Assembly (NCBI GenBank): GCA_049604715.1
Contig: JBMYTV010000012.1
Location: forward strand, 1-27,053
Length of the DNA: 27,053 nucleotides
Origin: Patescibacteria group bacterium
GTDB lineage: Bacteria; Patescibacteriota; Patescibacteriia; S139-126; S139-133
Direction: 5' to 3'
A program made the position numbers and the translations under genes. The notes under the pieces were generated by a model. That model was not told the origin of the DNA, made no database searches, and saw only the letters and a list, made by a program, of their open reading frames with translations. Of this stretch, positions 3,698 through 26,973 are shown in pieces (positions within the stretch are counted from its first letter, which is position 1; every line of letters starts with the position of its first letter).

Positions 3698-4558
3698 TTA
3701 GTTTTTATTAAGAACTTGCTGGAAAATAGCCTTGGCTTGATCATAATCAAGCTTTTCCAAAACATCATCTTCAGGTACCCACTCAGCATTTTGAATCTCA
3801 GGATCTTTGGTGATTGAAAATTCTTGCTTTTCAACTTCACCTAGAAAAAGATGGATGGTTTTTGGTGTTGGTTTTTTGTTTGGTTCGTTAACTACTACAT
3901 CGATTTCACCTATTTTGTCATACAATGTGATGTTTTCAAGGCCAATTTCTTCATTGATTTCTCGCATAGCTGCATCGCGAAGGTTCTCGTCTCCAGAAAT
4001 TTTACCTTTAGGAAATGTCCATCTCCCATGTGCATCAAGTACGACCGCGTACATTTTCTTACCTTCCTCTTCGTAAAAAATAATACCACCAGCTGAAGTC
4101 TGTTGCTCGCCCATAGGGTTTTCCATGTCTTGCTTTTCTCCATCAGCTTGCATTTGTTTATAAATAGAGCCCAGAACGCCGTTAATAAACTTACCAGATG
4201 CATCGCCACCAAATGTTTTTGCTAGCTCAATAGCTTCATTAATAGCTACTTTTGGAGGAATTGTCTCAGAGAATTTTAATTCAAAAATGCCGATACGCAG
4301 TACATTGCGATCGACAAGTGTGATTTGCTCCAATGGCCACTCAGGAGCATACTTGGTAATCAAGTCATTAATAGCATCAATGTTTTTTCGTACACCTTCG
4401 AGGATATCTCGAGAAAAGTGCTTATCATCAAAATCAGGAGCAAACTCATCGAAGTTGTGTTCGAGCATAGACAACAAACCATCATCTGGCATTTGGTAAA
4501 AATCCCATTCAAATAAGGTTTGTAATGCTAATGTACGAGAAAGATGTCTATTTGCCAT
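3698..4558 (-). CDS. nusB: NusB antitermination factor fused to a C-terminal NUDIX hydrolase domain
   Basis: Residues about 1-135 carry NusB motifs (RHLSRTLALQTLFEWDF, DRNVLRIGIFEL, INEAIELAKTFGG..KFINGVLG). Residues about 150-286 carry a Nudix box (GKISGDENLRDAAMREINEEIGL). It is one uninterrupted 286-aa ORF. Confidence 0.75.
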   Translation of the reverse strand: MANRHLSRTLALQTLFEWDFYQMPDDGLLSMLEHNFDEFAPDFDDKHFSRDILEGVRKNIDAINDLITKYAPEWPLEQITLVDRNVLRIGIFELKFSETIPPKVAINEAIELAKTFGGDASGKFINGVLGSIYKQMQADGEKQDMENPMGEQQTSAGGIIFYEEEGKKMYAVVLDAHGRWTFPKGKISGDENLRDAAMREINEEIGLENITLYDKIGEIDVVVNEPNKKPTPKTIHLFLGEVEKQEFSITKDPEIQNAEWVPEDDVLEKLDYDQAKAIFQQVLNKN

Positions 4559-7388: not shown

Positions 7389-7721
7389 TTAGTTTTCAGT
7401 TGATGTTGATTGTTCTAGGATGTCTTTCATTTCCAAAATGACGTCATCGTTAATTTCTGGGGTGCTTGTTGGTGTAGTGGATGCAACTTGGGTCTGAATA
7501 TACTTGTGTAACATGTTTATTTGCTCTTTTTGTCTATTGTACTCTATCTTAAGGTCTTCTGTGGAAGACGCGAGTTCGTCCCAAATACCAGGCTCTTGCG
7601 TTTCTTCAGTTGGTTCGTATGGATTGGTTGCAATAACCCATATAATCCAAAATAAAAGCAAAATAACTGTACTCACGATAACATATAGATTGCGCTTTTT
7701 TTCTAATCTGCCGTGAGACAT
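7389..7721 (-). CDS. Small membrane-anchored coiled-coil protein (FtsB/DivIC-like architecture; hypothetical)
   Basis: One N-terminal TM segment ([18 protein letters not shown]) is followed by a coiled-coil-like segment and an acidic S/T-rich tail. Its stop lies 4 nt upstream of the gyrA start. Confidence 0.45.
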
Positions 7722-7727
7722 AAGATG

Positions 7728-8390
7728 TTAAATATGTACAAGCGTTACTACCATCTCATCTTGTGGTAGGTCTTTTTTCTTTAAAGTAAGTTTTTGTGTT
7801 TCTTCGAACTTCTTTATACCAAGTTCTTTCAAAAATGCTTTTTCATCATCTACTTTAGCACTCACTCCAGAGAACTTGTAATATAGCGGTATAACCATGC
7901 GAGGCTCTAAATCTTGGACCAATCGTGCTGCTTGCTTGCCATCAAGTCTATCACCGCCGCCAATTGGAACACATAAGACATCTACAGAATCAAGAAGTTC
8001 ACGTGCCTTTGCTGACAAGTCAGTTGAAGTAAGGCTGCCAACATGACCTATCTTAATGTCTTCGCTTCCAACAACATAGACAGTACCTCCAGCTGCTCCG
8101 GCATCTGCACCATAAATAGAAATCTCGCGTGTTTCATATTCACCTGGGGTTGTGATCACAAACGCTTCTTTTGAGATAAGTTTTTTATCAACCTTACTGT
8201 CAGTTGAAATGACGACCTCTGCGTCCATTTTTGGTTGTCTGCCGCCCCATGTTTTAGTTTGAAAGGGGTCAAGTAAGATAACTGAATCACCAATGCCTGG
8301 TGATTTTACTTGCAGCCTCATAAATGTATTTCCAAAGTGTTGTAGTTGCATACTTTTTTCATCAATGTATATACCTATAGTAGCAAACAT
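7728..8390 (-). CDS. MBL-fold (UPF0173/COG2220-like) protein with degenerate metal-binding motif
   Basis: It resembles small metal-dependent hydrolases (ILLDPF; DVLCVPIGGGD...MVIPLYYK). The positions expected for HxHxDH and the late His are not histidines (ISTDSKVD, LYYK). Confidence 0.45.
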   Translation of the reverse strand: MFATIGIYIDEKSMQLQHFGNTFMRLQVKSPGIGDSVILLDPFQTKTWGGRQPKMDAEVVISTDSKVDKKLISKEAFVITTPGEYETREISIYGADAGAAGGTVYVVGSEDIKIGHVGSLTSTDLSAKARELLDSVDVLCVPIGGGDRLDGKQAARLVQDLEPRMVIPLYYKFSGVSAKVDDEKAFLKELGIKKFEETQKLTLKKKDLPQDEMVVTLVHI

Positions 8391-16289: not shown

Positions 16290-16390
16290 ATCTTATCAAG
16301 AGTGAGCTGAGGGAATCGGCCCTGCGACGCTCCGGCAACTTGCCTATATGGTAAAGTGCTTCTTCCGACCCATTCTTGGGGAAGATAAGT
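16290..16390 (+). promoter_or_regulatory. SAM-I (S-box) riboswitch aptamer
   Basis: The sequence reads TCTTATCAAGAGTGAGCTGAGGGAATCGGCCCTGCGACGCTCCGGCAAC...GGGGAAGATAAG. It matches the S-box consensus (P1 CTTATC/GATAAG; AGAGNGG.GGAGGGA..GGCCC..GA.GC.CGGCAAC) directly upstream of metK. Confidence 0.7.
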
Positions 16391-16423
16391 CAGTTTATAT
16401 ACCTTCTCAGGAGGTATTTTTTT

Positions 16424-16473: not shown

Positions 16474-17511
16474 ATGTCTTTATTACCCGCAACATATACA
16501 GCCGAAAGTGTAACTAGCGGTCATCCAGATAAAATTTGTGATGCTATAGCTGATAGTATTCTTGATTCGTGTCTACAGCAAGACAGTGAAAGCCGTGTTG
16601 CTGTTGAGTGCTTTGGCTCGCATGGGCAGTTATTTATAGGTGGGGAGGTTACAACTCAAGCTCATGTAGATTACAAAACAATCGCCCAGCACTTATATAG
16701 CGCTATTGGCTATGAGGACAATTTGGATATTACTGTCGCTGTAGCAGAACAATCCAGTGACATAGCTGATGGTATCAAAGACGATGGTGCAGGCGATCAA
16801 GGAATCATGTATGGATACGCATGTAATAGTACTGAGGAATTTTTGCCTTTGGGTGTTGTACTTGCTCATAAACTTACGCAAAGACTCGAGTTTGTTAGAA
16901 GACAGGGAGTTCTCCCGTGGCTGAGGCCTGACGGAAAAGCTCAGGTGACTATTAGTAATGGCAGAGTTGTTGCTGTTGTGGTTAGCACGCAGCATTCAAG
17001 TGGGATTAGCTTGGAGGAATTGCGCGCTCAAATAATACAATACATAGTCGAGCCATTGATCGATGTGAGTGCTGTGAAGAGTATATATATCAATCCTGCT
17101 GGAACTTTTACTATAGGTGGTTTCGCAGCGGATAGTGGATTAACTGGAAGAAAAATAATGGTTGATACCTATGGGGGTGTTGTTGTGCATGGAGGCGGGT
17201 CTTTCTCTGGGAAAGATGCATCAAAAGTAGATCGTTCTGGTGCATATATGGCCCGTTACGCTGCCAAAAGTATCGTAAGTCAGGGAAATGCAAAAGAGTG
17301 CTTGGTTTCAGTTGCGTATGCTATTGGCAAGAAAGAGCCGGTAATGCTTATGGCTGTAAATGAAAACGGTGAAGATATCCAGGAGATACACAGTTTTGAC
17401 TTCAAACCAAAATCAATCATTTCACATTTGGGATTGCTCAGGCCTATTTTTGGTAGAACAAGTAACTATGGTCATTTTGGAAAAAATATTTACCCATGGG
17501 AAAACGTATAG
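16474..17511 (+). CDS. metK: S-adenosylmethionine synthetase
   Basis: ESVTSGHPDKICDAIADSILD and GAGDQGIMYGYA motifs are present. An AAGGA RBS lies 7 nt upstream of the ATG. Confidence 0.92.
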   Translation: MSLLPATYTAESVTSGHPDKICDAIADSILDSCLQQDSESRVAVECFGSHGQLFIGGEVTTQAHVDYKTIAQHLYSAIGYEDNLDITVAVAEQSSDIADGIKDDGAGDQGIMYGYACNSTEEFLPLGVVLAHKLTQRLEFVRRQGVLPWLRPDGKAQVTISNGRVVAVVVSTQHSSGISLEELRAQIIQYIVEPLIDVSAVKSIYINPAGTFTIGGFAADSGLTGRKIMVDTYGGVVVHGGGSFSGKDASKVDRSGAYMARYAAKSIVSQGNAKECLVSVAYAIGKKEPVMLMAVNENGEDIQEIHSFDFKPKSIISHLGLLRPIFGRTSNYGHFGKNIYPWENV

Positions 17512-17541: not shown

Positions 17542-17949
17542 ATGGCAAGTGTAAAACAGTTTCAGCGCAGAGCAATCGAGAGGTTGTTGCCATATGCTGA
17601 TCCGTTGCCAGTATCGTGCAATACTAAGAGATTTTGTTTGTGCAGTGGTGGTCGTTTGTACAAGTTAGGGGCGAGTCAGGGTGTGGGTACGTGTAGTGAT
17701 GTATTGGATGTTGATGTGCTTGTAGTTGGTCGCAGGCAGGTATGTGGGAGCGGTGCTTATGTTAGAAGTAGATCCTTTGCAGCTATAGTATTGATAAGGC
17801 CAGCCACCAGAAAAGAGCGTAAATTGGCTCGGGCAGGTGTTGATCAAACTATCATGACGGTAGAGTTGCTTATTGTAAAAAGGCAAACAAAAAGCACGGT
17901 ATATTTTTCAAGGTCAGGCAAGAGGTCATACTATGTTAAGCTTGCTTAA
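17542..17949 (+). other. G+T-rich, C-poor ORF (135 aa, Cys/Val/Gly/Arg-rich) or structured RNA; identity unresolved
   Basis: A strong RBS (TAAGGAGGA) lies 8 nt upstream of the ATG. The composition is atypical: a hand count of about 120 nt gives roughly 10% C and 40% G. No family was recognised. Confidence 0.3.
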
Positions 17950-17952
17950 ACA

Positions 17953-17975
17953 AACCCCGCCAAAAGTGCGGGGTT
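17953..17975. terminator. CCCCGCC-family hairpin (terminator-like)
   Basis: AACCCCGC-CAAAAGT-GCGGGGTT is nearly identical to the hairpin after khpA. It has a weak T-run on the plus strand and a T-rich tail on the minus strand. Confidence 0.4.
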
Positions 17976-17980
17976 CTCCA

Positions 17981-18010
17981 TTGACAAAACACCTTTTTTA
18001 GTTTATACTT
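17981..18010 (+). promoter_or_regulatory. Candidate promoter TTGACA-N18-TATACT for khpA
   Basis: A consensus -35 and a near-consensus -10, about 70 nt upstream of the khpA ATG. A second TTGACA lies at 18019-18024. Confidence 0.4.
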
Positions 18011-18446: not shown

Positions 18447-18475
18447 CAAAACCCCGCCAAGTGGCGGGGTTTTTG
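18447..18475. terminator. Bidirectional intrinsic terminator (CCCCGCC family)
   Basis: CAAA-ACCCCGCC-AAGT-GGCGGGGT-TTTT. It serves khpA on the plus strand and the first array gene on the minus strand. Confidence 0.7.
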
Positions 18476-18480
18476 TATTA

Positions 18481-18564: not shown

Positions 18565-18912
18565 TCAGCTGGATGGGTTGCGTTTGTCATAGGCTATTGT
18601 GCTCATGAGCGCTCCAAAGGCTGCTGCAAGAAGCTGCACCAGAAACATCAAAAGAGCTGTAGATTCTTGGTGCTGTAGGCTATGATCGTGAACGATGTAG
18701 AGGCTGTGACCGAGGATATACATAGCACCAAGTGAAAGTAGGATATTTAACCAGTTTCGGAAGAAAATATTTACGATATCCATTACCATCACATGCAAAT
18801 TGTTGTTCAGGTCGTTCACTTCTCGAATCTTTGCTTCAGTCGCGTCCCATCTGTACGTTAGGGTAAAGTACAAAAGGAAAGAGACAATGATATACCACAC
18901 AAGTGTAGTCAT
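18565..18912 (-). CDS. Small 3-TM membrane protein, array member 1
   Basis: A 115-aa protein laid out as TM1, a polar loop of about 30 aa, then a TM2-TM3 hairpin (ALLMFLVQLLAAAFGALMSTIAY). Confidence 0.5.
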   Translation of the reverse strand: MTTLVWYIIVSFLLYFTLTYRWDATEAKIREVNDLNNNLHVMVMDIVNIFFRNWLNILLSLGAMYILGHSLYIVHDHSLQHQESTALLMFLVQLLAAAFGALMSTIAYDKRNPSS

Positions 18913-19105
18913 GATTATTCCTCACAAAATAGATTAAACAAAGAAATTAAAAAAGAACGAAATACATTAATTAAAAAAGCTTCATCTGATCTTACATAGA
19001 GTTTATAAGTTTGTCAAAGCGAACTTTACATATATACGCTTTTAAGTTAATGTAAACCACTAATTCAAGCTCTTAAACAATAAGTAAGTTCGTAAAGGGG
19101 AAGTC

Positions 19106-19738
19106 ATGTTCTTCCAGTATGATTATGTGTTGTTGGTCATTTTGTTTCTATTTATTTATTTTTTTAGGAAGCCTGGTTATATTCTTATTTACTCCAAAAG
19201 AAGAAGAACCGGTAGGGTGTTGTTTGTAAAAAAAACAGGCAAGAGCGCTCTTGTGATGGAGAAAGTAAAGAGTAGACCGGTCTTAATAGTCTTGCCTCCT
19301 GTTTTAGCAGATTTTGTTGAGCGCTTTATCAATGAGAATTATCAGTATGACTGGATGGGTGTGATTGGGGTAGCAATGACGTATGGGAGTATGCTTGATA
19401 ATTATAAGGTTTATACTTCACCAAAGCACGACCCATCAGTTTCAAAGTTTATGCGATATCCCAAAGAAGTACCAAGTACAGGAAGAAGGCCGATGGTGCT
19501 CAAGTTTCGTCTGAACACCTATAATGAAGCATATATGCTTCAGGGCGCGACAAAGCATGGGTTGGAACTTGAAGATTATATTATCTTCAATTTAAGAAGA
19601 TTCTATAGATACGTTGATATGCGGAAGACACACTACTTCTACTACAGGCATAAAGGTGAATATAAAAAGTTTGTTATCCATGGCCCGAACTCATATAGCG
19701 GCCCTCCTGTAACATTTGGAATATTCGACCCGAATTAA
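19106..19738 (+). CDS. Hypothetical protein with N-terminal TM, inside the array
   Basis: A 210-aa ORF with a GGGG RBS 5 nt upstream. The only plus-strand gene in the island. It has a possible Arc/RHH-like segment (MVLKFRLNTYNEAYMLQGATKHGLELEDYIIFNLRRF), which is a weak call. Confidence 0.45.
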   Translation: MFFQYDYVLLVILFLFIYFFRKPGYILIYSKRRRTGRVLFVKKTGKSALVMEKVKSRPVLIVLPPVLADFVERFINENYQYDWMGVIGVAMTYGSMLDNYKVYTSPKHDPSVSKFMRYPKEVPSTGRRPMVLKFRLNTYNEAYMLQGATKHGLELEDYIIFNLRRFYRYVDMRKTHYFYYRHKGEYKKFVIHGPNSYSGPPVTFGIFDPN

Positions 19739-19811
19739 AAAATTACAACCATCACTATTGTGATGGTTTTTACATTTTGAAAGTTTGCAAAGAGATATTT
19801 TTTTAAAAAAA

Positions 19812-19848
19812 TAGAAAACCTCCTGCTATTAGCAGAAGGTGAAAGTTC
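19812..19848 (-). repeat. Hairpin-terminator repeat, copy B (ACCTCCTGC-TATTA-GCAGAAGGT)
   Basis: The same family as copies A and C, with one stem mismatch. It lies 9 nt downstream of the minus-strand stop at 19849-19851 and is followed on the minus strand by TTTTCTATTTTTTT. Confidence 0.6.
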
Positions 19849-20172
19849 TTATGCGGAATTTTGTCTTTGAAAGTGTTTGATGCCAGCATATCGGCCGGTT
19901 ATAAGCGCGCCTATTATTGCTAAAGCAAAAACAATGACAATAGGATACTCTTTCACGACTGACAGGGTATAGTACACGGCCCATGTTAGTGGTACAATCC
20001 CGATCATAAAAACAGGAATGCCCCACGGGATGCAGATGGGTTTGATAATTTCCCAGGCAGTTGGTATTGATTCAGAAGTGGTTACTAGCTTGTCTTCTGA
20101 CTCTTCCCAAAGATAAGAAAGGATGCCAGATGTGGCAAGAATTGCAATACAGCAGAGGAAAAAGAGGATCAT
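19849..20172 (-). CDS. Small 3-TM membrane protein, array member 2
   Basis: A 107-aa protein with the same TM1-loop-TM2-TM3 layout. Its C-terminal TM (PIVIVFALAIIGALITGRYAG) resembles that of member 4. Confidence 0.5.
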   Translation of the reverse strand: MILFFLCCIAILATSGILSYLWEESEDKLVTTSESIPTAWEIIKPICIPWGIPVFMIGIVPLTWAVYYTLSVVKEYPIVIVFALAIIGALITGRYAGIKHFQRQNSA

Positions 20173-20528
20173 GTTAAGTCTCCTTTCGCTTTTCTGTATT
20201 TAAGCTTCTTCCACAGTATTTCCGTCACCACATGCAGGATTAGTCCGGCAGCTATGGTGATGGCAATTACCACCCACCAGCATATTTCAAGTTTTTTGGC
20301 GAAGGGCCATGATTCTATAATGATCCAGACAAACCCGATGATAACACCGAAAAGAAATACATACATGTATTTCTTTTCTAGAAAGTGTCGCCAGTAGTCT
20401 TGAAACCGAGTAGTACCATTCGGACGTTGATAAAGAAGTTCGTGTATTATAGACTCAACTTCAACGTGTCTGATAGTTAGGGCTATCACACACACGATAT
20501 ACAATACATACGCATAAAAAACATCCAT
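20169..20528 (-). CDS. Small 3-TM membrane protein, array member 3
   Basis: A 119-aa protein with the same layout. Its stop overlaps the start of member 2 (ATGA), suggesting translational coupling. Confidence 0.5.
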   Translation of the reverse strand: MDVFYAYVLYIVCVIALTIRHVEVESIIHELLYQRPNGTTRFQDYWRHFLEKKYMYVFLFGVIIGFVWIIIESWPFAKKLEICWWVVIAITIAAGLILHVVTEILWKKLKYRKAKGDLT

Positions 20529-20539
20529 TGGCAGCTCCT

Positions 20540-20923
20540 TTAAGCTTTTGTACTGATTTTGATAAAAAACACCTTACCTTTGAAATGCCTGTTACCAACC
20601 AATAAGCCGATAAAAGCACTGGCGACCGTAATGACAGTCGGGAAAGCATACATGCCCACGTCAGTTGGTACTGGCGATGACAGGAATACGATGATGCCGA
20701 TCCAAAGTCCAACAATCGCCAGAATAATTGATATCAGCGACGGGACCCAGATTTTTTTTAAAGAGATAAACTCTTTAAAAGTTTTGTACTTCTTTTCTGG
20801 CCGTTGTAATATTTTGACGTTATACGTCAATTCAGCCATGGCCAGCAGGAGAAAAACTAAGATGATGCACCAAATAACAAACATACCAAACATGGTAGAT
20901 ACCTCACAAAGAAAATTAAACAA
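20540..20923 (-). CDS. Small 3-TM membrane protein, array member 4
   Basis: A 127-aa protein with the same layout. Its C-terminal TM (PTVITVASAFIGLLVGNRHFKG) is similar to that of member 2. Confidence 0.5.
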   Translation of the reverse strand: MFNFLCEVSTMFGMFVIWCIILVFLLLAMAELTYNVKILQRPEKKYKTFKEFISLKKIWVPSLISIILAIVGLWIGIIVFLSSPVPTDVGMYAFPTVITVASAFIGLLVGNRHFKGKVFFIKISTKA

Positions 20924-20987
20924 ACATAATTATAAAGGTGCTGCCTGCGCAATTTACAACGTTTTTACTGATATGTAAAGTTTAAAT

Positions 20988-21022
20988 TATAAAACCTTCT
21001 GCAAATTGCAGAAGGTCAGTAT
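20988..21022 (-). repeat. Hairpin-terminator repeat, copy C (ACCTTCTGC-AAATT-GCAGAAGGT)
   Basis: A perfect 9-bp stem. On the minus strand it is followed by TTTT, about 20 nt downstream of the gene ending at 21041. Confidence 0.6.
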
Positions 21023-21040
21023 TGTTTTCAAGGAGTAGCA

Positions 21041-21355
21041 TTATGCTTGTTTTGATCTCTTTCTTTTCTTTCTAAAGAGACTTTTAAAATCGATTTCCTT
21101 GATGTAGGGTATAGCCCATGAGATGAATATCCCGAGTGTCACTGAGATGAGAAATAAGCCCATATGACCCATTGACTGCCACTTGGTCATCTGCGTTGGT
21201 ATGACAATAAAGTGACCAATAACAGACACAGCGAGCAATCCGTAGCTAATAAGATTATCATCTTCTTCGTGGTGCCATGCCCAGAATATCATGCCGCTTG
21301 AAGTTGCGTAACCAATGATTATAAAGATTAACCCAATATTTGTTTCCATATGCAT
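21041..21355 (-). CDS. Small 3-TM membrane protein, array member 5
   Basis: A 104-aa protein with three hydrophobic helices and a basic C-terminal tail (RKKRKRSKQA). Confidence 0.45.
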   Translation of the reverse strand: MHMETNIGLIFIIIGYATSSGMIFWAWHHEEDDNLISYGLLAVSVIGHFIVIPTQMTKWQSMGHMGLFLISVTLGIFISWAIPYIKEIDFKSLFRKKRKRSKQA

Positions 21356-21391
21356 CCTCTTGTTAAATGAGTGTATTACTAATACTTGGTG

Positions 21392-21745
21392 TTATTTTGA
21401 TACTTCGCGCCAAAGGCGTACCATCAGCGTGCTTGTAAGCCCAACAATCAAACCGGCAAGAATTTCAAGTACCGGCAGTAGTACTGCTAATAGTACAATA
21501 AACTGTGCATTGACAGGGAAGTTGACTGGCGGCGTGAAGTATAGGTAGAGCTGGTATGCGGTACACCCTAAAAAGATTACTAAGGTGATTACGAATAAGG
21601 TCTTTTTGGCGTGGAAGGCTTCAACCCAGTTTTTCTTTTTACTTAAGTACTCAGTAATATCTGGCTCATCAGTTCCACGTATACATATTTGGTATGTAAC
21701 AAATGCAACAATAACTAACTTTAATACATGCAGAAACAAAATCAT
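21392..21745 (-). CDS. Small 3-TM membrane protein, array member 6
   Basis: A 117-aa protein with the same layout, including a polar loop (CIRGTDEPDITEYLSKKKNWVEAFHAKKT). Confidence 0.5.
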   Translation of the reverse strand: MILFLHVLKLVIVAFVTYQICIRGTDEPDITEYLSKKKNWVEAFHAKKTLFVITLVIFLGCTAYQLYLYFTPPVNFPVNAQFIVLLAVLLPVLEILAGLIVGLTSTLMVRLWREVSK

Positions 21746-21855
21746 AATAACTCTCCTTTACTAAGATGGAAATGGAAGTATTATTTCAGTTTTACGTTTG
21801 GTGTGAACAATAACACCATCTGATTCATACCAGACATAGTCTGCGTGGTATTGTT

Positions 21856-22194
21856 TCAAACACAACGTAACAAAATCTCATCCTCATAATTGGGAGGAAA
21901 ACAAAGTCTAAGCTTTTGTAGTGACGCAGGTGTAAATTTAAATGAAACACGGTAAAATGTCGGACCTATTTTCTGCGAGATAACAGGCAGTGCCGACTGT
22001 TTGCCGTACTGTTCTCGTTTGAGCCATTTTTTATTTTTCCGGTAATACAGCATCCAGTTAAGCGCTGTTCTCATAATCATGCCCTTACTTTTTACTTCAT
22101 GTACATCCTGTAATTGCCTGATGAATTGAAATAAAACCACATCCAAACGAACCATAACCTGTACAGGCTGTTGTGGACTTGGTATCTTCTTCAA
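21856..22194 (-). CDS. Small basic soluble protein, possible ribbon-helix-helix regulator
   Basis: A 112-aa ORF with a TTG start. It has a beta-strand-like VQVMVRL followed by two predicted helices (DVVLFQFIRQLQDVHEV, MIMRTALNWMLYY), consistent with an RHH fold. This is a weak call. Confidence 0.35.
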   Translation of the reverse strand: MKKIPSPQQPVQVMVRLDVVLFQFIRQLQDVHEVKSKGMIMRTALNWMLYYRKNKKWLKREQYGKQSALPVISQKIGPTFYRVSFKFTPASLQKLRLCFPPNYEDEILLRCV

Positions 22195-22212
22195 GGCTAT
22201 CTCCTGTTGTTA

Positions 22213-22671
22213 TTATTCCTTCTTTTGTAATGAATTGGCGGCTTTGGTGAACAACCAAAATACAATACCAAAGAAAATAATACTACCAACAACAAAGTGT
22301 ATGTTAATAAGCATCATATTACTAGGCGTGCAAATACGTTGCCAGACATCATCTATTGTCTGCTTTTTAGCAGCTGCGGATTCGTACGAGCCCATATGCG
22401 CTAAGCAATAGATCCCACTAAGGGCTATGACCTCCCCAATGATGAGTATCAAAGAGATAGCAAAGGGTAAAAGCAGCGAAACTCGTTCGTGCGGATATAC
22501 TTTTTGTATCTCTGGTTGGAGGCCAAATAGCCACAGGAGCCAAATGAATGCGCATATTACTGATACAATAACCCACTTTTTAATAGCCTCGCTATTTTTT
22601 AATGCTAATTCTGTAATGTAGGCATACTTAATGTGATGAAGCCACTGTGAAACAAAGCTTTGCTGTCTCAT
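22213..22671 (-). CDS. Small 3-TM membrane protein, array member 7 (152 aa)
   Basis: Three TM helices with a soluble N-terminal part of about 30 aa. It is divergent from trmD. Confidence 0.45.
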   Translation of the reverse strand: MRQQSFVSQWLHHIKYAYITELALKNSEAIKKWVIVSVICAFIWLLWLFGLQPEIQKVYPHERVSLLLPFAISLILIIGEVIALSGIYCLAHMGSYESAAAKKQTIDDVWQRICTPSNMMLINIHFVVGSIIFFGIVFWLFTKAANSLQKKE

Positions 22672-22752
22672 AATACATCCTCTTTTTTAGGGTTTGAATT
22701 ATATTTGCTTTTAGGTTATTCTCAAACTGTATTTATTTGTCTAAGTGCTGTG

Positions 22753-23412
22753 ATGCGATTCGACATTATCACAATTTTCCCTGAAATACTAGACTCCTAC
22801 CTTGAGGAGACTATTTTGGCACGCGCCAAGTCACTTGGGATTATTGAGATTTATACCCACACGCCGCGGGAGTTTGCAACTGATGCGCACAAGTCTATAG
22901 ATGATAAGCCATATGGTGGCGGCGCTGGTATGGTCATGTTATTTGAGCCTATTGCTAAGACTATAGAAAAAGTAAAAGATCCTGAGCGTAAGTCATTGAC
23001 CGTACTACTTGCTGCAAATGGTGATGTCTTTAAACAAGAAAAGGCAAGGGAAATTGTAGCAGAGTATGAACAGGTTATTTTTATCTGTGGTCGATACGAA
23101 GGTGTTGATGCGCGCATTGAGGAAATAGTAGATATGAAGATGTCCGTAGGTGAATATGTATTGGCTGGTGGTGAATTACCTGCACTTGTAATGCTTGAGG
23201 CAACCGCACGGCTGATACCAGGCGTGCTAGGGAAAGAAGAATCACTTCGCGAAGAAAGCTTTAATGAAGACGGGTATCTTGAGTATCCACACTATACCAG
23301 ACCAGAAACTGTTTCATGGCAAGGAAAAGATTATACAGTTCCAGAAGTATTGCTATCTGGCAATCATGCAGAGATTGTAAAGTGGCGTAAACAAAATTCC
23401 AGACATACATAA
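22753..23412 (+). CDS. trmD: tRNA (guanine37-N1)-methyltransferase
   Basis: Has MRFDIITIFPE and DDKPYGGGAGMVM motifs. I place the start at the internal in-frame ATG (MRFDI) rather than the ORF-track start at 22660. The upstream extension is hydrophobic and would overlap the divergent gene. Confidence 0.85.
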   Translation: MRFDIITIFPEILDSYLEETILARAKSLGIIEIYTHTPREFATDAHKSIDDKPYGGGAGMVMLFEPIAKTIEKVKDPERKSLTVLLAANGDVFKQEKAREIVAEYEQVIFICGRYEGVDARIEEIVDMKMSVGEYVLAGGELPALVMLEATARLIPGVLGKEESLREESFNEDGYLEYPHYTRPETVSWQGKDYTVPEVLLSGNHAEIVKWRKQNSRHT

Positions 23413-23427
23413 TAGATTAACAATAGA

Positions 23428-23448
23428 GCATCACAATTAAATAATTAA
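23428..23448 (+). promoter_or_regulatory. Conserved upstream motif GCATCACAATTAAATAATTAA (copy 1)
   Basis: An identical 21-mer occurs at 23955-23975, each about 26-31 nt upstream of a paralogous gene start. It may be a promoter or an operator. Confidence 0.4.
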
Positions 23449-23474
23449 AACCACAAAATAAGATAGGGGATACT

Positions 23475-23834
23475 GTGTCAAAAAAGGCATTAATAAAACT
23501 GAGAAATCAAAGACGTAAGGAGAGTAAGCACAAGAAGAAAAGAGAAGTAATGGAAGGATATGTGGGTTTGGGCGTTGCTGGAGAATTAGATAAAGGTTAT
23601 TATCAGGTGCATTATGGCACTAATCCCAAAAGGGGTTATCATGTTTGTTATTTTAATGGAGAGAGTTGGTATTTGTATAATCTTCATCCGATTATTAGGA
23701 TGGGTGAAAGAGTGCGAAAACCAAATCATATCCTCACACAGAGATTGACCGGAAGGGTTACTGCATCAAGGATATTTTATCCAACAAAAGATACTAAACC
23801 CCAAAACCCACTCAGGATGAGTTATTATAGATAA
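23475..23834 (+). CDS. Basic protein with one W/Y-rich ~50-aa repeat (uncharacterised domain)
   Basis: GTG start with a GGGGA RBS. The repeat is GYYQVHYGTNPKRGYHVCYFNGESWYLYNLHPIIRMGERVRKPNHIL. The N-terminus is K/R-rich. Confidence 0.55.
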   Translation: MSKKALIKLRNQRRKESKHKKKREVMEGYVGLGVAGELDKGYYQVHYGTNPKRGYHVCYFNGESWYLYNLHPIIRMGERVRKPNHILTQRLTGRVTASRIFYPTKDTKPQNPLRMSYYR

Positions 23835-23847
23835 ATTTTGTGAAAGA

Positions 23848-23880
23848 AAGCCCTGTCGATAATCGACAGGTTTATTATTT
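23848..23880 (+). terminator. Intrinsic terminator (CCTGTCGA-TAA-TCGACAGG + T-run), copy 1
   Basis: The hairpin is followed by TTTATTATTT. An identical stem occurs after the next paralog. Confidence 0.65.
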
Positions 23881-23954
23881 GTCTGTAGATAGTATTTGAC
23901 ATATTACTTAAAATAAAGCATGATAGCTTATCATTGGTAAGTATTTTGGTTAGT

Positions 23955-23975
23955 GCATCACAATTAAATAATTAA
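23955..23975 (+). promoter_or_regulatory. Conserved upstream motif GCATCACAATTAAATAATTAA (copy 2)
   Basis: Identical to the motif at 23428-23448. It lies 31 nt upstream of the TTG start at 24007. Confidence 0.4.
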
Positions 23976-24006
23976 GTTTGTTTGTAAAAAGAAGAGAGGT
24001 GTTATT

Positions 24007-24726
24007 TTGGTTAAGAAAAAAGGGAAGTTGATTAAGCCAGGTAATGGCGGAGGCAAGAAGCAACAAAAGGAAGGCGTAAAAGTAGTCAATGATGGCTACA
24101 TGCTCACCAGGGATGCGTATCCCTTGGAGGAGGGTTTCTACCGGGTTCATTATGGGTTTGACCGAGAAAAAGGTTACTATACGTGTTTTTTTAAGAAAGA
24201 GAACAGGTGCTGGTATATGTATAGTGATCACCTTTCAATTAAATGCGGTGAAAGGGTTACAAAACCGCAACACGTTCTTCCGGGACGAATAATAGGTCGG
24301 ATAGAAAAAGATCCCAGATTTATCCCTTCTCCATATGGAGCGGCAAAGCATCCTCTTAAGAAGCTTAAGTCCGTTGTACCCGTTCACACTAATGTTAAGA
24401 AGCAGAAAAGAAAAAAGGTGAAGGTAATTTCGGATGATTTTGTTCTCACCAGAGATGCTTATGCTCTGCCGTTGGAAAAAGGATTTTACCAAGTACATTA
24501 TGGTATTGATCCTGATACGGATTATTACAGGTGCTATTATGATGGAAAATTTTCGTGGTACATGTATGGCGACCACAAATTGATCCACAAAGGTGAGCGT
24601 GTGCGAAAGCCAACCCATGTAAAGCCTGAAAAGTTGACCGGTCCTTCATTTACAAGGCAGCTTATCAACTGCCCACCCAAAAATACTTCCGTAAAGAATC
24701 CTCTTAAGAAAACTATCTTTGATTAA
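24007..24726 (+). CDS. Basic protein with two copies of the W/Y-rich ~50-aa repeat
   Basis: TTG start with an AGAGGTG RBS. The repeats are GFYRVHYGFDREKGYYTCFFKKENRCWYMYSDHLSIKCGERVTKPQHVL and GFYQVHYGIDPDTDYYRCYYDGKFSWYMYGDHKLIHKGERVRKPTHV. It is paralogous to the 23475-23834 protein. Confidence 0.6.
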   Translation: MVKKKGKLIKPGNGGGKKQQKEGVKVVNDGYMLTRDAYPLEEGFYRVHYGFDREKGYYTCFFKKENRCWYMYSDHLSIKCGERVTKPQHVLPGRIIGRIEKDPRFIPSPYGAAKHPLKKLKSVVPVHTNVKKQKRKKVKVISDDFVLTRDAYALPLEKGFYQVHYGIDPDTDYYRCYYDGKFSWYMYGDHKLIHKGERVRKPTHVKPEKLTGPSFTRQLINCPPKNTSVKNPLKKTIFD

Positions 24727-24735
24727 TTGCAAATT

Positions 24736-24768
24736 AAAACCCTGTCGATAATCGACAGGTTTTATATT
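24736..24768 (+). terminator. Intrinsic terminator (CCTGTCGA-TAA-TCGACAGG + T-run), copy 2
   Basis: The same stem as at 23852-23870, followed by TTTTATATTTATT. Confidence 0.65.
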
Positions 24769-24833
24769 TATTCGCTAAAAATACATAAAATAGACTGTGC
24801 ATGGCTTGTGGATCAATAGAAGACCAAAAAGAC

Positions 24834-24863
24834 TTGACATTTTGCTAAGAATACGGCTATAAT
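24834..24863 (+). promoter_or_regulatory. rRNA operon promoter candidate TTGACA-N18-TATAAT
   Basis: Consensus -35 and -10 hexamers lie about 290 nt upstream of the 16S 5' end. Confidence 0.5.
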
Positions 24864-25152
24864 ACCAAAGCTTTTGAAATAGTAACCAACAAAACCGCAC
24901 TTTAGCTGATTTTACAGTAGTATAGGAGGTGACCACTACTAAGAACAGTGAAGCTTATTTTGAACAAGTAGGTTTCTCTGTTTTTATTAGCTTCAAAGCT
25001 CATAGAGACAAGATCATTGATATTTATATAGTGTTCGGGAGGTAAATGTGTATACGCGCATTTACTTTTTCTCGATCAATTCTTTTTGATTAAGCTTTTA
25101 GCTTAATCAACCATTTTCTATTTCTATTTGAAGCTTTGAGATAGATTCTCAT

Positions 25153-26622
<1,470 letters not shown>

Positions 26623-26896: not shown

Positions 26897-26973
26897 GGGC
26901 GATTAGCTCAGCTGGTTAGAGCGCGTCACTGATAATGACGAGGTCGGAGGTTCAAGTCCTCCATCGCCCACCA
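26897..26973 (+). tRNA. tRNA-Ile (anticodon GAT), CCA encoded
   Basis: GGGCGAT acceptor, D-arm GCTCAGCTGGTTAGAGC, anticodon stem CGTCA/TGACG with loop CTGATAA, T-arm GGAGGTTCAAGTCCTCC, acceptor ATCGCCC, discriminator A, then CCA. Confidence 0.9.

Follow-up and report, generated by a model that had tools for sequence, protein, structure and literature searches.

Paralogous basic, aromatic-rich proteins with shared flanking elements in an insertion between trmD and the ribosomal RNA operon of an uncultured Patescibacteria bacterium

The design of the small basic beta-barrel binders, a basic tail combined with an aromatic-faced beta structure, is common in DNA- and RNA-binding proteins. Here we describe two open reading frames (ORFs), ORF-A and ORF-B, which lie side by side on contig JBMYTV010000012.1 of an uncultured Patescibacteria group bacterium; the contig was analysed over its complete length of 27,053 nucleotides (nt) and is hereafter called the window. 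Their products resemble the Sso7d/Cren7, cold-shock/OB-fold and SH3-like/KOW modules in size, an isoelectric point (pI) of around 10, lysine/arginine (K/R) tails and a predicted all-beta aromatic core. This likeness is one of type only: the repeated module of ORF-A and ORF-B has no sequence or fold match to these groups, and membership is not claimed. With a short conserved leader element 26-31 nt 5' of the start codon and basic products, the pair is also analogous, and only analogous, to autoregulated operons of ribosomal and other small proteins, from which it differs in that the ORF-A and ORF-B leaders have no predicted RNA structure. We consider it somewhat more probable than not (roughly 55%) that ORF-A and ORF-B form an orphan family which arose by tandem duplication and fusion, that its proteins are cytoplasmic and probably bind nucleic acid, and that the two genes share a promoter/operator box as well as an intrinsic terminator.

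As a phenomenon the pair is ordinary, lineage-specific unknown genes being common in this phylum. The AGNOSTOS catalogue (Vanni et al. 2022, PMC9132574) contains 54,343 lineage-specific unknown clusters in Cand. Patescibacteria, 45,788 of which are specific at the species level. Like these clusters, the A/B pair is taxonomically restricted, comes from a Patescibacteria metagenome-assembled genome (MAG) and carries neither annotation nor a Pfam domain; it differs from them in being a family from a single sample with a worked-out duplication history, constraint on the protein and two conserved non-coding elements.

ORF-A and ORF-B are paralogues. Their coordinates are those given in an earlier, sequence-only annotation of the contig (the original prediction), and the public annotation predicts the identical two proteins, ACPGO5_04865 and ACPGO5_04870. 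When ORF-A was aligned with both halves of ORF-B, BN and BC (alignment A1; Table 1), the three modules proved homologous over their full 117-122 amino acids (aa), comprising a K/R-rich head, an aromatic core and a C-terminal NPL[KR][KM] motif. Pairwise amino-acid identity among the modules, over 113-118 aligned codons, is 36-45%, the halves of ORF-B being nearest to each other (45%, versus 36-40% to ORF-A), and 27 columns are invariant, including Y43, H46, Y47, Y55, C58, W65, Y66, Y68, H71, GERV, KP and H85. The repeating unit is thus a module of ~120 aa present in three copies rather than the ~50-aa repeat described originally. The motif proposed for that repeat is broadly present, but the gap from C[FY][FY] to WY measures 4-6 residues, not 6-8, and its GYY element, found in BN, reads GYH in ORF-A and DYY in BC. 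Since BC has its own internal basic head, the head belongs to the module and is not an N-terminal targeting signal. Furthermore, an 18-nt direct repeat (17/18 nt match) at 24345 and 24693, located at the NPLKK motif within ORF-B and spaced by 348 nt, or 116 codons, marks an in-frame module duplication. An independent Logan assembly (run SRR27204692, of which we found no mention in the literature searched) is 100% identical to the window over 19163-25188; because a second assembler gives the same sequence, the arrangement of the two genes is not an assembly chimera.

Comparison of the modules at the nucleotide level points to selection on the encoded proteins. Identity between modules is 0.51-0.63, 0.58-0.64 and 0.35-0.40 at codon positions 1, 2 and 3, respectively (for ORF-A against the other modules, 0.36-0.40 at third positions and 0.51-0.61 at positions 1 and 2), whereas the proportions of nonsynonymous (pN) and synonymous (pS) differences are 0.35-0.41 and 0.80-0.86, the latter being saturated. 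Read in the annotated frame, the modules are conserved least at third positions, which shows coding constraint; they are under protein-level purifying selection, and ORF-A and ORF-B are by this measure real genes. Each ORF, moreover, has a properly placed Shine-Dalgarno (SD) site, start codon and terminator, and the SD-like sites of both match the CCUCC of the 16S gene 3' end (CACCTCCTT). These features, together with a low pN beside saturated pS across three in-frame modules and with 27 invariant residues that include W, Y, H and C, leave hardly any credit for the view that the ORFs are spurious, a non-coding spacer that chances to be open, even though no homologue was found in any searched collection, structure predictions were of low confidence only and first-codon-position GC (0.42-0.48) is below the 0.49-0.59 of housekeeping genes on the same contig, a deficit for which the abundance of Lys accounts.

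The duplications are not young. Among 80 trmD loci fetched from GTDB representative genomes, the closest to the window is WFTG01000031.1 (hereafter L002), with a TrmD 71% identical and a 16S ribosomal RNA (rRNA) 94.2% identical. Orthologues in the window and L002 differ by a pS of 0.53-0.76, below the between-module pS, which places the duplications no later than the split from L002. The GC content and base composition of ORF-A and ORF-B are typical of the contig; recent horizontal transfer was considered on compositional grounds and rejected, GC and skew being unremarkable.

Outside the coding regions, the two cassettes share two short elements. The window contains two exact copies of the 21-mer GCATCACAATTAAATAATTAA, one starting at 23428 and the other at 23955 (0 copies expected from shuffles), with no further copy at up to 3 mismatches, and the 19-nt hairpin CCTGTCGATAATCGACAGG likewise occurs exactly twice, at 23852 and 24741 (0 expected). 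The original prediction had reported an exact 21-mer in front of each gene and an identical hairpin with a T-run behind it and had concluded that gene, promoter and terminator were duplicated as one module; with paralogous modules between exact copies of both elements, a duplicated unit of gene, leader and terminator is supported. The distance from the end of the box to the start codon is 26 nt in ORF-A and 31 nt in ORF-B, and the hairpins start 17 nt (ORF-A) and 14 nt (ORF-B) past the stop codons. The 21-mer is the core of a 25-nt box, 24 of whose 25 nt are the same in the two leaders, and the terminators are identical over 23/23 nt. The longest word common to both cassettes has 23 nt; in shuffled sequences (n=200) it averages 9.6 nt and never exceeds 13.

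The edges of these islands are sharp. Counted per 10 nt, identity anchored on the box runs 4, 4, 1, 3 / 9, 10, 5 / 3, 4, 2, and anchored on the hairpin 3, 1, 4, 6 / 10, 10, 7 / 4, 5, 3, 1, so that directly outside the islands it drops to chance level (1-5 of 10). As synonymous sites are saturated, the islands cannot be neutral remnants; their cause is either purifying selection on the sequence itself or homogenisation over very short tracts. Neither element has a copy elsewhere in the window, in 81 fetched loci or in genome and metagenome collections, apart from one chance match of the hairpin on a viral contig, which has no T-run and lies in coding-like DNA. The 21-mer had no match in GTDB-representative genomes or JGI metagenomes, collections that do not include the source MAG itself.

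The hairpins have the textbook anatomy of Rho-independent terminators, namely an 8-bp stem with 5 G-C pairs, a 3-nt loop and a T-run, situated just past the stop codon. Both copies, with tails TTTATTATTT or TTTTATATTT, are terminator-like by prediction and much more stably folded than shuffled sequence, and intrinsic terminators are used throughout the contig. The leaders, in turn, have no stable or common RNA fold (z = -0.8 and +0.8), and Rfam returned nothing at gathering score; at E <= 1 over 23350-25160 there was just a miRNA model (E = 0.64), which falls outside the leaders and is meaningless. An RNA element in the leader was accordingly rejected, having neither fold nor Rfam family. Because the box lacks both and, in leader A, overlaps a promoter-like site matching 10 of 12 consensus positions, it is read as a DNA/protein site, and we infer that the 25 nt constitute a shared promoter/operator element, read by a sequence-specific protein that would co-control both genes. 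The protein in question may be the products of ORF-A and ORF-B themselves. In the ORF-B leader, a perfect palindrome (ATGATAGCTTATCAT, ATGATA-GCT-TATCAT) at 23920-23934 overlaps the -10 of the promoter-like site; the ORF-A leader has no counterpart.

The genomic context of the pair was assessed by comparison with the fetched loci. The gene order in L002 is wzx-wzy-khpA-trmD-16S, and about 55 nt separate the trmD stop codon from the rRNA promoter string (TTGACA...ACGGCTATAATACCAAAGCTTTT), which occupies 24834-24876 in the window. Homology with L002 restarts at about 24773 (GCTAAAAATACATAAAATAGACTGTGCATGGCTTGTGGA), directly past the T-run of terminator 2. Given the short spacing in L002, the A/B pair is a lineage-specific insertion. 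Direct succession of trmD and 16S was seen in at least nine relatives (L002, L003, L008, L010, L013, L028, L037, L049 and L062), among which the gap between the two genes ranges from 0.2 to 3.9 kb. The position had been described as the one where rplS normally follows trmD; since relatives have the 16S operon and not rplS after trmD, nothing was displaced, and the pair is not an rplS replacement. A divergent L19 (bL19, PF01245) was also tried as an identity for the module and rejected, with no Pfam match at E <= 1 and an hhalign probability of 0.4% for A1 against an E. coli L19 sequence. A profile search of six-frame ORFs found no module homologue in the trmD loci of the 80 relatives.

Several of these loci have peculiarities of their own. 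The trmD-16S gap of L028 contains two unrelated ORFs without known function (90 and 196 aa), and that of L013 is high in GC and contains sigma-factor-like and adenylosuccinate-synthetase-like ORFs, on what may be a chimeric contig. In L003 the 16S 5' end tttatttgagagtttgatcct occurs twice, at 7685-7713 and 7806-7830, about 120 nt apart; the start of the rRNA gene may be duplicated here, or an intervening sequence may lie near its 5' end.

Beyond trmD, towards khpA, is a second lineage-specific island of 4.1 kb (18565-22671); L002 lacks it, its khpA-trmD gap being only about 400 nt. It encodes, on the minus strand, six or seven proteins of 104-152 aa with ~3 transmembrane (TM) segments each, which barely align with each other, as well as a 210-aa ORF on the plus strand and a 112-aa non-TM ORF; none of the island proteins had a match in Pfam, NCBIfam, PHROGs or PADLOC. 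Its units reuse a terminator family, ACCTTCTGC-loop-GCAGAAGGT, in 3 copies (18485, 19818 and 20993), and a 39-nt leader at 18917-18955 and 20899-20937 (77% identical). The N-terminus of the 112-aa non-membrane ORF (21856-22194, minus strand), VQVMVRLDVVLFQFIRQL, resembles by eye the strand and helix of a ribbon-helix-helix protein, with no profile match. A third case of a reused terminator on the contig is a similar CCCCGC...GCGGGG hairpin pair that flanks khpA (17952-17982 and 18449-18479). Small ORFs that diverge fast between conserved expression signals are thus present to either side of trmD, which makes the flanks of the A/B pair less singular, and this reuse is the main reason for keeping two further explanations of those flanks alive.

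According to the first, nothing about the box and hairpin is special beyond their being promoter and terminator, they have no particular sequence-specific role, and repeated short-tract gene conversion or recent local copying has homogenised them, which is compatible with the rest of our account. The two hairpins are identical even in the 3-nt loop, which is free of terminator constraint, and with a second hairpin family and the 39-nt leader reused among the neighbouring small-membrane-protein genes, homogenisation may be a habit of this genome. The islands of identity, however, are just 23-25 nt long with sharp edges, shorter than typical conversion tracts; coding regions contain no comparable patch except for the 17/18-nt match at the NPLKK motif in ORF-B, and conversion would need to strike precisely two functional non-coding elements and nothing else. 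On balance we consider this origin of the flanks unlikely, if the most serious of the competing explanations.

The second explanation takes the box and the hairpin as the ends of a mobile or recombination-captured cassette, integron-like or MITE-like (miniature inverted-repeat transposable element), two of which were inserted by the rRNA operon. Integron cassettes carry attC, an imperfect inverted repeat with R''/L''-L'/R' boxes, and depend on an IntI integrase and a nearby attI. Among the ORFs of the window that encode 100 aa or more, none has an integrase, transposase or other recombinase domain, and the hairpin, 19 nt of perfect stem-loop with a T-run behind it, differs from attC, which spans 57-141 nt and has extrahelical bases. 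A target-site duplication is likewise not apparent, the units contain paralogues, as in-situ tandem duplication predicts, and the confinement of both elements to this locus in the searches above also speaks against mobility. We therefore regard capture as very improbable, notwithstanding the fit of the insertion, which starts at the trmD stop codon and ends precisely at the T-run of hairpin 2, the identical 5' and 3' elements that bound units of different content length, the variable trmD-16S gap among relatives, with unrelated unknown ORFs in L028, and the same bounded-unit pattern in the island beyond trmD.

No relative of ORF-A or ORF-B was detected by any search. Neither had a match in Pfam (gathering score), NCBIfam, PHROGs or PADLOC, a PDB sequence search gave only noise (E >= 0.06), and no relative was present among 15 billion proteins; these negatives bear on relatives above about 30% identity. 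A word-indexed search of 5.8 billion clusters, with a single sequence and with a profile, returned self matches only, and exhaustive phmmer over 1.84 billion representatives returned only self, the neighbouring gene and one further protein (P0003, below). Degenerate-pattern and tblastn scans of viral contigs and JGI metagenomes yielded no homologue, nor did tblastn against phage and plasmid records. The protein collection, including Logan-derived proteins (in which both ORFs occur under 'lgn'), yielded no third paralogue, either from the organism's own sample or from elsewhere. The original statement that the repeat is not a known domain thus holds throughout these collections, and in the Pfam check that had been proposed with it no module reaches a Pfam cut-off. 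By sequence, the module belongs to no known family, new in the sense that it has no detectable relative and not in the sense of a new mechanism.

Homology to USP/UCH (PF00443) was examined and rejected. ORF-B scored 20.1 bits against a cut-off of 23.9, ORF-A had no match, only 1 of the 3 modules matched in a per-module scan (E = 0.0028), and the hhalign probability was 1.2%. The match to P0003 (E = 2e-7) is a repeat-summation artefact, its E-value being the sum of numerous weak similarities to the USP His box; searched singly, a unit has no match at library scale. P0003 itself is a 3205-aa 'protein' in which gene calling has run together ten USP17-like deubiquitinase units that lie in tandem. 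The likeness to the USP His box covers ~45 residues of the module, Y-x-V-(x)-H-x-G-x4-5-G-[HY]-Y-x-x-[YF]-x5-7-W-Y-x-x-x-D. In contrast to USP/UCH, the modules, with ~120 aa, lack the Cys box and the remainder of the ~300-aa papain-like domain, and each of the three has Tyr where USP/UCH has its catalytic His (GHY), the His of GYH in ORF-A being located one residue downstream of the aligned catalytic position.

The composition of the proteins suggests where and on what they might act. ORF-A has a pI of 10.3, with 26 K+R versus 8 D+E, and ORF-B a pI of 9.8; W, Y or F make up about 12% of residues. Neither contains a TM-like segment, a hydrophobic N-terminus, a signal peptide or a lipobox, and both are probably cytoplasmic. 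Structure prediction, which the original prediction had proposed as a check, was run with AlphaFold2 on the full module and on the core, using the three-sequence alignment. The models had low confidence (predicted local distance difference test, pLDDT, of 37 and 48) and contained only 3-4 short beta strands, all in the core (FYQVHYG, YxCYY, SWYxY and RVR). A Foldseek search of the PDB with the pLDDT-48 model gave a best E of 2.8, and several of the non-significant top matches were OB folds, which is not evidence. With a basic tail and an all-beta, aromatic composition and predicted secondary structure, nucleic-acid binding is the favoured function: a small all-beta aromatic-rich core, helped by the K/R-rich tail, would contact RNA or DNA. 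We put this forward tentatively, at odds somewhat short of even. Among the invariant residues is an H-x11-C-x12-14-H-x13-H set (H46, C58, H71 and H85 of ORF-A), which may hold a metal ion; with three sequences, the enrichment is not statistically compelling.

The original prediction had offered nucleic-acid binding and cell-wall binding side by side, and the second of these leads to a different view of the family, as host-interaction or surface proteins that leave the cell by non-classical export and whose aromatic repeats bind cell-wall or host-surface polymers. W/Y-rich beta-hairpin motifs bear a superficial likeness to choline- or glucan-binding repeats. The adjacent lineage-specific island encodes small membrane proteins, and most Patescibacteria live as episymbionts and have a great many unknown genes specific to their lineage (PMC9132574). 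The N-termini of ORF-A and ORF-B are, however, purely K/R-rich and carry no export signal, the internal module retains its basic head, as expected of a part of the domain, and no Pfam wall-binding repeat (e.g. PF01473) was found at E <= 10 in any module. Of the two proposals, then, nucleic-acid binding is the more plausible, given the high pI and the absence of TM segments, and a surface role appears improbable.

The simplest history leads from one cassette through a tandem cassette duplication to an in-frame module duplication within one copy. In this scenario, an ancestral cassette consisting of the leader box, a ribosome-binding site, one ~120-aa module and an intrinsic terminator would have been present in, or inserted into, the short spacer from trmD to the rRNA promoter. 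Tandem duplication of the cassette would have followed, and a second, in-frame duplication of the module in one copy would have produced the two-module ORF-B.

Several points weigh against an orphan family of probable nucleic-acid-binding proteins under a shared operator. The module has no homologue and no confident fold, the argument for nucleic-acid binding is one of composition only, and the family comes from a single sample. Being an insertion, the pair draws little information from the trmD/rRNA neighbourhood. The identity of the hairpins, loop included, exceeds what a terminator needs and could be explained by gene conversion. In leader B, the -10 is as in leader A, but TTTTGG (2/6) stands at the position of the -35 of leader A, and the better promoter-like site of cassette 2 is 30 nt upstream of the box; the distance between the box and the best promoter match is therefore not the same for the two cassettes. 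A more far-reaching version, in which the module represents a nucleic-acid-binding domain of a kind not seen before, which may bind metal and recognises its own 25-nt box and/or hairpin, so that the insertion would be an autoregulated cassette in front of the rRNA promoter, is speculative and rather improbable.

Table 1. Coordinates of the A/B cassettes and of adjoining features in the window
Feature	Position (nt)	Strand	Description
trmD	22744-23412	+	tRNA m1G37 methyltransferase, conserved left neighbour; PF01746, E = 9e-50
Lineage-specific insertion	23413-24772	+	1.36 kb, from trmD stop to region 5' of rRNA promoter; two expression cassettes
Promoter-like site, cassette 1	23417-23445	+	TTAACA-17-AATAAT, 10/12; box 1 covers spacer and -10
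Leader box, copy 1	23424-23448	+	TAGAGCATCACAATTAAATAATTAA; includes 21-mer 23428-23448; AATTA-AA-TAATT inverted repeat
SD-like site, ORF-A	23465-23470	+	AGGGGA, 4 nt 5' of GTG; read from sequence
ORF-A	23475-23834	+	GTG start, 119 aa, one module, pI 10.3; K/R-rich head, beta-rich W/Y-rich core, NPLRM tail
Intrinsic terminator 1 (predicted)	23852-23880	+	8-bp stem, TAA loop, T-run, upstream A-tract; -12.0 kcal/mol, z = -2.8
Promoter-like site, 5' of cassette 2	23896-23924	+	TTGACA-17-CATGAT, 10/12, consensus match only
Leader box, copy 2	23951-23975	+	TAGTGCATCACAATTAAATAATTAA; 24/25 nt identical to copy 1
SD-like site, ORF-B	23994-24001	+	GAGAGGTG, 5 nt 5' of TTG; read from sequence
ORF-B	24007-24726	+	TTG start, 239 aa, two modules
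ORF-B N-terminal module BN	24007-24372	+	residues 1-122 (A1); identity 36% to A, 45% to BC
ORF-B C-terminal module BC	24373-24726	+	residues 123-239 + stop codon (A1); own K/R-rich head NVKKQKRKKVKV
Intrinsic terminator 2 (predicted)	24741-24769	+	same hairpin, then TTTTATATTT; -13.7 kcal/mol, z = -4.3
rRNA operon promoter	24834-24863	+	TTGACA-18-TATAAT, 12/12; string kept in L002
16S rRNA	25154-26622		3' of rRNA promoter
tRNA-Ile	26897-26973		3' of 16S rRNA

Between wzy and khpA, a segment absent from L002 (16290-17949) contains an S-adenosylmethionine (SAM) riboswitch (16290-16391, 65 bits) 5' of metK (16474-17511), followed by a 135-aa unknown ORF (17542-17949). Elsewhere on the contig, NusB (residues 7-134) and NUDIX hydrolase (residues 158-277) domains are joined in a single 286-aa ORF on the minus strand (3698-4558).

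What lifts the A/B pair slightly above the background of lineage-specific unknowns is the constraint on its proteins, the clean history of duplication and fusion, the two conserved cis-elements and the position before the rRNA promoter. To our knowledge, almost nothing is known about gene regulation in Patescibacteria. If the module were a new fold that recognises its own leader by sequence, the known set of small nucleic-acid-binding domains would gain a member, and there would be a rare opening for experiments on how genes are regulated in these bacteria. The locus is also a worked example of how an orphan family may grow, by insertion beside a core gene, duplication of the cassette and in-frame duplication of the module, in the course of which expression signals can stay identical while the coding sequence diverges to 36-45% identity.

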